Shown piece by piece: positions 60,235 to 64,000 of a stretch of 64,000 bases of DNA (its first letter is position 1; each line of letters begins with the position of its first letter). The position numbers were made by a program, and so were the translations under genes. Source of the stretch: Prosthecobacter debontii (lineage in GTDB: Bacteria > Verrucomicrobiota > Verrucomicrobiia > Verrucomicrobiales > Akkermansiaceae); NCBI GenBank assembly GCA_945873125.1, contig CAMCBV010000007.1, forward strand, positions 5,342 through 69,341. Reading direction: 5' to 3'. The notes below the pieces were generated by a model. The model was not told the DNA's origin. It searched no databases and was given only the letters and a program-made list of their open reading frames with translations.

Positions 60235-60612
60235 ATGCATAATTTCGAAGAACTAGAAGTTTGGAAACGTTCATCGCGGTTAGCGGTGGATGTGTACAAA
60301 TTAATAGACGCTATCCGCTTATATAGTCTGAGAGATCAGATGGCTCGCTCTTGCCTTTCGATTCCGTGTAATATTGCTGAAGGTGCGGATCGTGACAGTG
60401 ATCGTGAGTTCCGAAGATTCTTAGCTATATCAAAAGGTTCTGCAGGTGAGCTTAGGACTCAACTACATATAGGCCTCAAAGCTGGAATCTTTTCTGAGGA
60501 AGTCGCAAGGCATTTGATCGATGAAGTGAAAGAAATATCATCAATGATCGAAGGTCTACGTAAGCGGTTACGTCCGAAAATGATCAATTCTTTATTGAGC
60601 CTATTTTTCTAG
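60235..60612 (+). CDS. Four helix bundle protein (23S rRNA intervening-sequence protein family)
   Basis: FEELEVWKRS, LRDQMARSCLSIPCNIAEG, FRRFLAISKGSAGELRTQL. It looks more AT-rich than the flanking metK and ahcY. Confidence 0.95.
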   Translation: MHNFEELEVWKRSSRLAVDVYKLIDAIRLYSLRDQMARSCLSIPCNIAEGADRDSDREFRRFLAISKGSAGELRTQLHIGLKAGIFSEEVARHLIDEVKEISSMIEGLRKRLRPKMINSLLSLFF

Positions 60613-60704: not shown

Positions 60705-62117
60705 ATGAGCTTCACAGACTATAAAGTAAGAGACATCGGCCTTGCCGATTTTGGACGTAAGGAAATCGATATCGCCGAGCACGAAATGCCGGGCTTGATG
60801 GCGACACGTGAGAAGTATGGCAAAACCAAGCCGCTCCAGGGGGTTCGCATCATGGGTTCGTTGCACATGACCATTCAGACCGCGGTGTTGATCGAAACGC
60901 TTGCAGATCTCGGTGCTGAGGTGCGCTGGGTTTCGTGCAATATTTTCTCTACCCAAGATCACGCGGCCGCAGCGATTGCAGCTCGTGAAATTCCTGTCTT
61001 CGCATGGAAAGGCGAGACCTTGGAAGAATATTGGTGGTGCACCTGGCAGGCGCTCGTTAACAAAGACGGCCTTGGTCCGCAGCTTATCGTCGATGACGGT
61101 GGCGACGCGACCTTGCTCATCCACAAAGGCTACGAAATGGAAAACGGATCCAACTGGATCGACAGCCCGGGTGAGAGCGAAGAGGAGCAAGTCATCAAAG
61201 ACCTCTTGAAAGACATCAAAGTCAAGCAACCCGGAATTTTCCAAACGATCGTTAAAGATTGGAAAGGCGTTTCCGAGGAAACCACCACCGGTGTGCATCG
61301 CCTCTATCAGATGGCCAAGGCTGGTAAGCTTCTTGTCCCAGCGATCAACGTGAACGATTCCGTGACCAAGTCGAAATTCGATAACCTCTACGGCTGCCGC
61401 GAGTCGCTGTTAGATGGTATCAAGCGCGCGACCGATGTGATGATCTCTGGCAAAGTAGGCGTGGTCTGCGGTTACGGCGATGTCGGCAAAGGTTGTGCGC
61501 AAGCGCTCCGTGGCGCCGGCGCGCAAGTGGTTGTGACCGAGGTCGATCCGATCTGCGCGCTGCAAGCCGCGATGGAAGGTTTCCGTGTTCTCACGATTGA
61601 AGACACGCTTGGCTGGGGAGATATCTATGTCACGACTACCGGTAACAAAGACATCATCACCCTCGATCATATGTCGAAAATGAAAGATCAGGCGATCGTT
61701 TGTAACATCGGTCACTTTGACAACGAGATCCAGATGGACAAGTTGAACAAGGCACCGGGTGTGACTCGTCTGAACATCAAGCCTCAAGTGGACAAATACA
61801 CTTTCGCCACAGGCAACAGCATTTACATGCTTGCTGAAGGTCGCTTGGTGAACCTCGGTTGCGGAACCGGCCATCCATCTTTCGTGATGTCCAATAGCTT
61901 CACCAACCAGACGCTCGCTCAAATCGATCTCTGGGAAAACCGCGAGACCTACAAAGCCGGTCAAGTGACCGTCCTTCCGAAACACCTCGACGAAGAGGTT
62001 GCCCGTCTTCACCTCGCAAAAATCGGAGCGAAGCTCACCAAGATTACTAAAGACCAAGCGGATTACATCGGTATATCATCGGAAGGCCCCTTCAAGGCGG
62101 ATCACTACCGTTATTAA
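60705..62117 (+). CDS. ahcY: Adenosylhomocysteinase
   Basis: [83 protein letters not shown]. Confidence 0.98.
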
Positions 62118-62138: not shown

Positions 62139-62173
62139 AAAAGCCAGTCGGGTTTAGATCCGGCTGGCTTTTT
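62139..62173. terminator. Bidirectional terminator after ahcY, also facing the cassette array
   Basis: AAAAGCCAGTCGG-GTTTAGAT-CCGGCTGGCTTTT. Confidence 0.88.
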
Positions 62174-62263
62174 CTGTTACGTTAGAGGAATGGCAACGCC
62201 GGTGGAAAGTCTCAAATTCAATCAGACGCGCTCATCGGCGTTGCCATCTCCAACTTGTTCTGC
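62174..62263 (-). mobile_element. attC site (distal cassette)
   Basis: Minus strand GCAGAAC AAGTT GGA(G)ATGGCAACGCCG...CGGCGTTGCCATTCC TCTAAC GTAACAG. The L boxes pair perfectly with one extra G. R' is non-canonical (GTA). Confidence 0.88.
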
Positions 62264-62635
62264 TTCTTGGTTATCAGATGACCTCTTGAATCGGCTCCAA
62301 GCAAGTAAAGCGACTGATGGAACTATGAGAAAGAGAATCAGATTCATTGGGTAAGCGAGAAAGCTAGTGGGGCCGACAAAATCCAACCAAGGGGATTCTG
62401 CATCGTCACGCTGGAAAACGACACTCGGGATCGGCCAACCGTAAAACCTCGTATTCGAGTTGGAATAATAATTGTAGTTGAATGTCGTGAAGATGCAGGC
62501 ACCGGCTGCCACTACAAACCATGACCAATAGCTAAGTCGAAGAACCTTCGATGTAGAATTACTTGTTGCCTTTATCATCGCTGCGATCACAGCAACAAGG
62601 GCCACGAGAAAAGCCGCTATAATGAAAAGTGCCAT
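62222..62635 (-). CDS. Integron cassette ORF, hypothetical membrane protein
   Basis: Three hydrophobic segments. The C-terminus EAEQVGDGNADERV is encoded by the attC arm. The core site GTTCTGC lies 43 bp upstream. Confidence 0.8.
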   Translation of the reverse strand: MALFIIAAFLVALVAVIAAMIKATSNSTSKVLRLSYWSWFVVAAGACIFTTFNYNYYSNSNTRFYGWPIPSVVFQRDDAESPWLDFVGPTSFLAYPMNLILFLIVPSVALLAWSRFKRSSDNQEAEQVGDGNADERV

Positions 62636-62677
62636 AACTTCAGATGGAATTCGATGGTTGGCCTACAATATTTTTTA

Positions 62678-62767
62678 GCAGAACGATATAGGCCATCCAC
62701 GGCGGGGAAGGAAGCCCGAATTCAATTAGAGAGTTTGTCGACGGTTGCATCCCATGGCTTGTTGGGC
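62678..62767 (-). mobile_element. attC site (middle cassette), imperfect stem
   Basis: Minus strand GCCCAAC AAGCC...TCTAATTGAATT...TATATC GTTCTGC. It has the same 90-bp length as the distal attC and shares its central TCT(G/A)ATTGAATT. The L-box pairing has mismatches. Confidence 0.75.
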
Positions 62768-62805
62768 ATCTTGCTTCTTCGGGATGCATGGGCATATACG
62801 AGAAA

Positions 62806-63039
62806 TCATTCCCGAGATTTGGGGTGATAGATCCAGCGCCACCAAATGAGACAGATGATCAAAAGATAGACGGCATAGGAAATCCACATTGCGGTAGAGC
62901 CATCAAATCTTCGGGCATGCTCACGCCAATCTGGGTCCGACCACATTCCTTCAAGTATTGCGAACGGCAATGCAGCGAGTATCACACACAACCAAGTCTT
63001 ACCGAGAATGGTGTTAGCTGGACGGAGTGGGTCTGACAT
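62806..63039 (-). CDS. Integron cassette ORF, small hypothetical membrane protein (77 aa)
   Basis: MSDPLRPANTILGKTWLCVILAALPF...WWRWIYHPKSRE, with two TM segments. The GTG start in the ORF track lies inside the upstream attC. Confidence 0.7.
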   Translation of the reverse strand: MSDPLRPANTILGKTWLCVILAALPFAILEGMWSDPDWREHARRFDGSTAMWISYAVYLLIICLIWWRWIYHPKSRE

Positions 63040-63065
63040 CGCGGTGTAAGTATCTGAAAATTCTT

Positions 63066-63178
63066 GCCCAACGTACGCGATCACCGGCACCTACCCGTGG
63101 CGCGATCCATGCCGGGAGCGGAGCGACCAAGCATGGAGCGTGACGCGGGTAGGTGTTCGGTGGATCGCATTGTTCGGA
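63066..63178 (-). mobile_element. attC site (proximal cassette)
   Basis: Minus strand TCCGAAC AAT GCGATC(C)ACCG..CACCTACCCG..TCCATGC...GCATGGA..CGGGTAGGTG.CGGTGATCGC GTAC GTTGGGC. It starts immediately after the TAA of the cassette gene. Confidence 0.92.
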
Positions 63179-63658
63179 TTATTTTTTTCGCGCTTGATTC
63201 ATCTTCCATGCTTCGTATTCACGCAAGTCTTGCAGGACAAGAAATAGGCAAATGCTAACAACGGCGGCGTCATCAAGTAGGCCGATCACTGGGATGAAAT
63301 CTGGAATTAGATCTATAGGGCTTAGGACATAGAGAAGCGTGAATACAATGGCGGCTATGGACCAATAGGGGATTTCACGGTATTTGCCGGTCCAATAGTC
63401 AGAAACAATGTCCAACAGAAGCTTGGCGTTATCCATGTATTCGCGAAGCGGTCCTTTTGTGAATTGTTCATTAATTTCTTTGGATTTTTTATGAACTTTC
63501 TCAATGTCCTTTTCTGTGATCTTCTTGGCTCCCGCTTCCACAATTTTGCGCGCCTTGGCTGGAGAAGGAATTCTCTTATCACTCGGCTTTGCAGTTAAAC
63601 GTTTTGTTGTCTTAGCCGGTTTGCTCGGCGATTTAGTCTGGCTGGTTGGTTTCTTCAT
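63179..63658 (-). CDS. Integron cassette ORF, YkvA/DUF1232 family membrane protein
   Basis: AAIVFTLLYVLSPIDLIPDFIPVIGLLDDAAV, with a Lys-rich N-terminus. Confidence 0.92.
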   Translation of the reverse strand: MKKPTSQTKSPSKPAKTTKRLTAKPSDKRIPSPAKARKIVEAGAKKITEKDIEKVHKKSKEINEQFTKGPLREYMDNAKLLLDIVSDYWTGKYREIPYWSIAAIVFTLLYVLSPIDLIPDFIPVIGLLDDAAVVSICLFLVLQDLREYEAWKMNQARKK

Positions 63659-63666
63659 ATTATTTT

Positions 63667-63720
63667 TCCGAACAGTATTTATTAGTAGAGTCCCACGTGT
63701 GTATATCAGGCGGGGTTAAC
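63667..63720 (-). mobile_element. attI-like recombination site at the 5' end of the array
   Basis: The core GTTCGGA (63673-63667) is complementary to R'' TCCGAAC of the first cassette. It is preceded by AT-rich TACTAATAAATACT rather than by an attC hairpin. A possible extended -10 TGATATACA is at 63708-63700. Confidence 0.6.
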
Positions 63721-63859
63721 TTCTAGATCCAATCGAAATTTCTCAATAACGACAAGGAATTTGCTAGATTGCGTGGGTACTATCAGGAATTTTTAGAGAG
63801 GTTAATAGGGTTAACGCTCTCATTCTGATATCACTTGTTACAATGTTGAAATACTGAGG

Positions 63860-63960
63860 ATGGCGACCTTGATTTGTCGGGGCAGGCAGAAGATCGCCGC
63901 TACTTACAGGCGCGGCGAGACGCCGCTAGCACGGTCTGCTGCGAGACGTAGCAGCTACTT
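63860..63960 (-). repeat. Cluster of three GTAG/CTAG-type REP-like palindromes
   Basis: AAGTAG-CTGCT..AGCAG (63936-63960), GCTAG-CGGCG..CGCCG (63912-63932) and AAGTAG-CGGCGATC..GGTCGCC (63860-63905). Confidence 0.65.
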
Positions 63961-63963
63961 TTC

Positions 63964-63999
63964 TTATGGCTCGTCTTTTTTGAAATCCTTGGTCAGGCT
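63964..63999 (-). CDS. 3' end of an unidentified gene entering from the right edge
   Basis: One frame reads ...SLTKDFKKDEP* (TAA at 63964-63966) and is followed directly by REP-like hairpins. It is too short to identify. Confidence 0.35.
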   Translation of the reverse strand, partial: SLTKDFKKDEP

Positions 64000-64000
64000 T

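Follow-up and report, generated by a model that had tools for sequence, protein, structure and literature searches.

The window, by which we mean the whole 64-kb stretch of DNA analysed here (G000:C7:5342-69341), is located on the 89-kb contig C7 of a 2.88-Mb assembly that consists of 83 contigs and is 94% complete. Near its right end, three gene cassettes headed by an attI remnant lie between ahcY and a DEAD-box helicase gene (Table 1). As claimed in the original prediction, the minus strand carries three genes of like orientation, and an attC stands behind each of them. The middle attC is degenerate. The cassette sizes given there (about 601, 388 and 504 bp) agree with the measured ones, and the core upstream of each cassette is indeed the exact complement of its own R'' (7/7 positions in all three cassettes). 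This chaining of R' and R'' also holds in the intI-adjacent arrays of relatives. Two of the cores do deviate from GTTRRRY, but such deviation is the norm in this lineage, where 24 of the 30 attCs used for model training carry GTTC.

Table 1. Features of the cassette array, its attI and its flanks; coordinates refer to the window unless a contig is named, and a slash within a sequence marks the crossover point
Feature	Position	Strand	Size	Remarks
Four-helix-bundle gene	60235-60612		125 aa	left flank, between metK and ahcY
ahcY	60705-62117	+		left flank; order metK, small four-helix-bundle gene, ahcY
Terminator-like hairpin	62139..62175	.		AAAAGCCAGTCGGGTTTAGATCCGGCTGGCTTTTT; bidirectional, serves ahcY (+) and the cassette array (-)
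attC_3	62263->62174	-	90 nt	R'' GCAGAAC to R' GTAACAG; ends ...CTCTAACG/TAACAG
Cassette 3	62683->62180	-	504 bp	start GTTCTGC 62684->62678; own R'' GCAGAAC 62263->62257
Cassette 3 ORF	62635->62222	-	137 aa	membrane protein; stop codon within the attC loop
attC_2	62767->62678	-	90 nt	R'' GCCCAAC to R' GTTCTGC; degenerate
Cassette 2	63071->62684	-	388 bp	start GTTGGGC 63072->63066; own R'' GCCCAAC 62767->62761
Cassette 2 ORF	63036->62806	-	76 aa	two hydrophobic segments
attC_1	63178->63066	-	113 nt	R'' TCCGAAC to R' GTTGGGC
Cassette 1	63672->63072	-	601 bp	start GTTCGGA 63673->63667; own R'' TCCGAAC 63178->63172
Cassette 1 ORF	63658->63179	-	159 aa	DUF1232 membrane protein (Pfam E 8e-15); Lys-rich N-terminus
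attI remnant	63673..63797	-	125 bp	ends ...CTACTAATAAATACTG/TT; crossover G at 63673
Spacer, attI to helicase gene	63798..63958	.		GC-rich REP-like hairpins
DEAD-box helicase gene	begins at window end	+		right flank
Second attI-like block	G000:C40:238-421			without intI; 79% identical to the G156 attI-intI spacer

At least two strongly hydrophobic segments are present in each of the three cassette-encoded proteins, in line with the expectation of small membrane products, and only the first protein belongs to a known family, leaving two without one as had been stated. Searches of Pfam, NCBIfam and PADLOC yielded no family match for the proteins of cassettes 2 and 3, and NCBIfam and PADLOC gave nothing for any of the cassette proteins. 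Nothing ties these genes to resistance or virulence. Homologues of the cassette 3 protein adjoin attCs in other genomes: one with 65% amino acid identity lies beside a 55-bit attC in an uncultured Luteolibacter sp. (G301), and another with 74% identity lies beside a 47-bit attC in a Verrucomicrobiales MAG. Together with the different cassettes that occupy the orthologous locus of G156 and G219 (see below), these homologues beside foreign attCs indicate that the cassettes are mobile.

The Rfam database holds no attC family, and a scan in E-value mode returned chance matches only; a lineage-specific covariance model, R1, was therefore built from sequences outside the own genome. It was trained on 30 attCs, mostly of about 125 nt, that adjoin intI genes in genomes of the family other than the own one. 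These sites were gathered by a heuristic finder for AAC...GTT hairpins, which was used for this purpose only, is weak genome-wide and missed attC_2 and attC_3. The training sites share the frame NNNNAAC-AAG...ACGTTNNNN, neighbouring sites chain through the complementarity of R' and R'', and compensatory changes were observed in all 15 predicted stem pairs of the alignment. In the family alignment, unpaired (extrahelical) columns lie on the 5' arm.

When R1 was applied to both strands of the window (128 kb), exactly three matches were obtained, all on the minus strand: attC_3 with 29.4 bits (E 8.5e-7), attC_1 with 25.2 bits (E 1.4e-5) and attC_2 with 13.7 bits and many broken pairs (E 0.027), these E-values being rough. 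Whether a covariance model would score the three sites as attCs had been named as a decisive check, and R1 does so for each of them. In about 235 kb of DNA from relatives the model gave three strong matches and a weak one; two of the strong matches lie beside intact intI genes and one lies just downstream of the truncated intI of G034. Single-strand folding of attC_1 (-33.1 kcal/mol, z -4.6 against shuffles) and of attC_3 (z -4.4) is far better than that of shuffled sequences, and attC_2 folds no better than shuffles (z +0.88). The extrahelical bases of attC_1 align with those of the family, whereas the bulge of attC_3 sits on the 3' arm, so that this feature gives a mixed picture for attC_3. 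The latter site is visibly homologous to an intI-adjacent attC of G124 (window GCAGAACAAGTTGGAGATGGCAAC...GTTGCCATTCCTCTAACGTA; G124 GCAGAACAAGTCGGAGATGGCGAC...GCCGCCATTCCTCTGACGTT). Its R', GTAACAG, is not a GTT core. We consider attC_2 to be best read as a decayed attC: its stem is broken, but its position, its strand and its exact chaining on both sides are not due to chance. By the R1 matches, the array thus contains at least two attCs within 4 kb on one strand. Further attCs were detected elsewhere in the own genome, namely two on C48 and others on C52, C69, C54 and C21. A direct-repeat search for attC families found nothing in the intI flanks of three relatives, where no array adjoins the intI genes.

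Directly upstream of cassette 1, a block of 129 bp (63669-63797), which extends 4 bp beyond the first G/TT, is homologous to the attI sites of related integrons. It is 92% identical to G156:C11:636-764, a segment situated between the first cassette and an intact IntI of 442 aa, 96% identical to the attI of G105:C45, and reaches 99% identity with the orthologous site of G156:C2, which is without intI. The identity to the sites beside intact intI-A genes in G156, G105, G309 and G225 amounts to 92-96%. Blocks of the form ...CCGCCTGATATACACACGTGGGACTCTACTAATAAAWACTG/TT head arrays in G105, G003, G225, G309 and others, and each time the similarity ends right behind ACTG/TT, where the first cassette starts; five loci show this break with exactness. 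From the homology of this block we conclude that the window holds an attI plus cassettes and that, as far as sequence comparison can tell, an attI is present at the head of the array. The label CALIN, under which the array had first been placed, is therefore only partly appropriate: there is no neighbouring intI, but the 125-bp attI has been kept, which makes the array an integron platform that lost its intI rather than a bare CALIN. A scan of the minus strand from 63674 to 64000 with the sigma-70 consensus gave no promoter, with the reservation that such a scan does not cover the promoter rules of the phylum.

The absence of an adjacent integrase, which had also been claimed, was confirmed. 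The integron integrase model TIGR02249 has no match on the 89-kb contig C7, the ORFs examined over 10 kb outside the window belong to housekeeping genes, with no intI among them, and no IntI remnant was detected between 63700 and 64400, a stretch that includes the spacer from the attI to the helicase gene. The adjacent divergent intI of a complete integron is thus missing from this locus. Its expected position is the spacer between attI and the helicase gene, where none is present; this spacer is 99% identical to that of G156, and homology to G003 restarts only at 63959.

Elsewhere in the own genome, the best match to TIGR02249 (C6:135-830) reaches 234 bits against a cut-off of 265 bits and covers model positions 3-231 only. 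The corresponding ORF (G000:C6:108-1259, L010) encodes 383 aa; its product has an N-terminal extension of about 130 aa but no catalytic C-terminus. The ORF passes into a 140-bp repeat (C6:1-140), presumably the end of an IS, which recurs nine times elsewhere, on eight contigs and each time at or close to a contig end. An ORF of 385 aa in G034, 56% identical to the C6 protein, is truncated at a similar point. A second, degraded fragment (G000:C70:7633-7824) represents a piece of the IntI-A N-terminal extension, contains a stop and has an internal deletion; it adjoins sequence that is also present on C4. No intact intI was found in the own assembly. The possibility that the C6 gene is the missing integrase of the array, separated from it by a contig break, was considered and rejected: for 20 kb C7 runs on through housekeeping genes, and the sequence C6:1-140 is repeated at many contig ends.

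In the family as a whole, integron integrases are common: 68 of 151 genomes have a TIGR02249 match above the curated cut-off. The IntI-A of G156 is intact and shows the HxxR and Y motifs as well as the IntI-specific insert. The open frames of the family comprise about 420-470 aa or more, compared with 315 model positions, and the N-terminal extension is conserved. Many of these genes are located within 1-2 kb of contig ends. A TGTTC-N4-GAACA palindrome (GTGTTCTTATGAACA) occurs just upstream of intI in several genomes (L010 1274-1290; L110 ~845-860; L113 ~1430). We take it to be a LexA box of the Verrucomicrobia type, in which case intI would be under SOS control. No such palindrome accompanies the orphan attI of the window.

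Whether the cassette genes are fixed at this locus had been raised as a further check, and the comparison with relatives shows that they are not. In G156, the closest relative (ahcY 99% and helicase 98.6% amino acid identity), the interval between ahcY and the helicase gene (G156:C2) agrees with the window in its attI, again without intI, and in the spacer from there to the helicase gene, but it contains a single different cassette, which begins with G/TTAGCC, encodes 217 aa and ends in an attC with R'' GGCTAAC (31 bits). The flanks of the two genomes are 93-99% identical, and the terminal junction is common to both (...TTTAACG/TAACAAAAAAAGCC in G156 and ...CTCTAACG/TAACAGAAAAAGCC in the window). 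G219 (ahcY 99.6% amino acid identity) has the same terminal junction, ...ATCG/TAACAGAAAAAGCC, together with other genes and an IS110-like transposase. In G003, which carries no array, the order ahcY, helicase, hydroxylase, ldhA, TerC, lpxD is kept, and 188 bp of unrelated spacer are found without attI and without cassettes. The terminator-like hairpin forms the edge of the conserved chromosomal flank, and the homology of G003, G156 and G219 restarts at TAACAG/terminator. Judged by these alignments, the variable segment is bounded by two integrase crossover points. The intI-less junction is common to the sister species and hence predates their split.

At the orthologous locus of G219 (G219:C110; L128 874-2152), the array contains the inserted transposase gene of the IS110 family, which seems to be split in two. 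An integron of G132 situated 7 kb from ahcY was considered as a sign of an ancestral locus and rejected; it differs in orientation and in the genes that separate it from ahcY, and the interval contains no attC.

In this Luteolibacter-like genus, copies of one attI type sit at several chromosomal loci per genome, and many of them are without intI. We examined 13 loci of the type found in the window and sought intI within the 1.4-3.8 kb available. Intact IntI was present at four, IntI was matched only at both of its ends at two, and the remaining seven were orphans (own C7, G156:C2, G269, G180, G235, G219:C34 and G140), one of which, G140, keeps a C-terminal IntI remnant of 26 aa. Among the five orphans outside the own genome and G156, four have attCs beside them (three each in G140 and G269, two in G235, one in G219:C34) and G180 has none. 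At two loci, G003:C61 (L129) and G227:C44 (L137), the intI-A beside attI matches only residues 1-143 and 315-434, the central part being missing or unrecognisable alike in both. The attI-like block on C40 of the own genome is a more diverged orphan that would be the 14th and is outside this count; it is flanked by a small cassette-like ORF and by rpe. Orphan attI sites of this kind may all be used in trans by one integrase that has survived, so that the integron would be a distributed network of cassette docks and not a single platform, a view to which we give slightly less than even chances. If it is true, the window would contain one such dock with documented cassette turnover.

Taken as a whole, these observations make it highly probable that the array is a decayed chromosomal integron (a CALIN that retains its attI) in which an integrase from another locus exchanged the cassettes. 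It consists of the attI, three promoterless minus-strand cassettes and a terminal G/TAACAG junction before the ahcY terminator, and the intI gene, which normally lies divergently beside attI, is missing. The sequences directly show what the attC and attI sites are, where the cassettes begin and end, that intI is absent and that the species differ in content; the steps that follow are inferred. The cassettes would have entered as circles through IntI-catalysed recombination of attI and attC at G/TT, which would account for the complementarity between the first bases of every cassette and its own R''. After the loss of intI, exchange may have continued in trans through an IntI encoded elsewhere, such as G156 still has. 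Sister species share the intI-less attI and the terminal junction but carry different cassettes, so that exchange most likely took place after intI loss and in trans.

The earlier suggestion of capture by a trans-acting integrase is accordingly well founded for the lineage, given the intact intI that G156 has elsewhere together with a 92% identical attI. With no intact gene in the own assembly, capture at this locus is probably historical, and the state of that assembly (94% complete, 83 contigs, no intact integrase) means that trans activity cannot be shown for the own organism. Its integrases now look dead, one being disrupted by an IS and the other a fragment. Together with the decayed attC_2, this suggests that the array is probably inert at present and that cassettes 2 and 3 have likely become fused into one unit. 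Transcripts would come from the attI side, presumably from a promoter near attI, and would end at the hairpin that also serves ahcY.

It could be argued that no integron is involved at all and that ordinary small genes with terminator or REP-like hairpins show 7-mer matches by chance. REP-like hairpins are common in the own genome and the middle hairpin folds no better than shuffles, as this explanation would have it; yet chance hardly produces three exact 7/7 boundary complements or strand-specific matches to a covariance model with an independent training set, and the explanation must also face an attI homologous to sites beside intI genes, cassettes that differ at the same locus in relatives and cassette 3 homologues that adjoin attCs elsewhere. 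On this evidence it is already refuted and can be given practically no weight. Another explanation sees the array as a bare CALIN, formed when an integrase inserted a three-cassette circle at a non-classical secondary (attG-type) chromosomal site that had never been an integron platform. This route to CALINs is listed by Cury et al. 2016 (PMC4889954), and it would agree with the terminal G/TAACAG, a non-GTT core as at secondary-site insertions, and with the absence of both intI and an intI pseudogene nearby. What lies upstream of the first G/TT is, however, a 125-bp attI that is 92-96% identical to intI-adjacent attI sites, and G003, which is without the array, is also without the attI sequence at this locus. 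The attI homology largely refutes this origin, which we regard as very improbable.

A decayed integron may also be assumed in which no trans integrase acted after intI loss and in which homologous recombination or allelic replacement, acting through the conserved attI and ahcY flanks, produced the differences between the own genome, G156 and G219. Flanks that are 93-99% identical between the own genome and G156 could support such an exchange, no intact intI was found in the own genome, and the G219 array is disrupted by an IS. However, the divergence starts exactly at the attI G/TT crossover and at AACG/T of the last attC, and a donor array with the same flanks would itself need an integrase. 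Moreover, the intI-A of G156 is intact and has an attI of its own that is 92% identical, and orphan attI sites with differing cassette sets recur in at least five further genomes of the genus. We therefore hold this explanation to be unlikely, although clearly less remote than the insertion of a circle at a secondary site, and favour the decayed integron with exchange in trans.

With the complete integrons of the same genus (for example G156:C11, G105:C45 and G132:C8), the window has in common the attI …CTGATATACACAC…AATAAAWACTG/TT, the attC architecture NNNNAAC-AAG…ACGTT, usually of about 125 nt, the GTTC cores and the chaining of cassettes. In contrast to the window, these integrons have both a divergent IntI of 420-470 aa with the N-terminal extension and the TGTTC-N4-GAACA palindrome upstream of it. 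Sedentary chromosomal integrons with a decayed intI are exemplified by the Xanthomonas integrons beside ilvD. Such integrons (see also the 2025 preprint 10.1101/2025.06.18.660453) resemble the present case in their fixed chromosomal locus beside a housekeeping gene, their species- or strain-specific cassettes and their often inactivated integrase; unlike them, the intI of the window is wholly deleted and not pseudogenised in place, and several loci per genus carry its attI type, not all of them together with an intI. By the definition used for IntegronFinder (PMC4889954), the array is a CALIN: at least two co-oriented attCs lie within 4 kb, the cassettes are promoterless, and the nearest 10 kb contain no intI. 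It is unusual in keeping a recognisable attI, which IntegronFinder models only for classes 1-3, and in the cassette turnover that sister species show at the orthologous locus.

Integrons in Verrucomicrobia have already been reported, and CALINs have been proposed to arise, among other ways, by loss of the integrase (Cury et al. 2016, PMC4889954). The array is a sound and fairly ordinary example of this known gene-capture system; beyond that, it has kept its attI and provides evidence that cassettes turned over at a dock without intI. It is a natural example of how a cassette dock can outlive its own integrase and still change its content between closely related species, which bears on the origin of CALINs and on the question whether they stay active. 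In addition, the analysis yields a lineage-specific attC model and an attI consensus for Verrucomicrobiales.

Two minor observations concern the surrounding DNA. The four-helix-bundle gene between metK and ahcY resembles a variable insertion; it is seen in a minority of relatives (G132, G156, G029, G023, G025) and is missing from most genomes of the same genus. On C6, direct repeats of about 100 bp (…GTGATCCTGCTTTGGGGGTTTTGGAAATGGGTCGACTGAAACCACGTGACC…GGCGACCGATGWTCGCCGCTACGG) are located at L010 1384-1510 and 1676-1780, and related hairpins of the GCCGCTAC type recur in intergenic DNA, including positions 63860-63955 of the window. Both the repeats and the hairpins look like REP or MITE elements.
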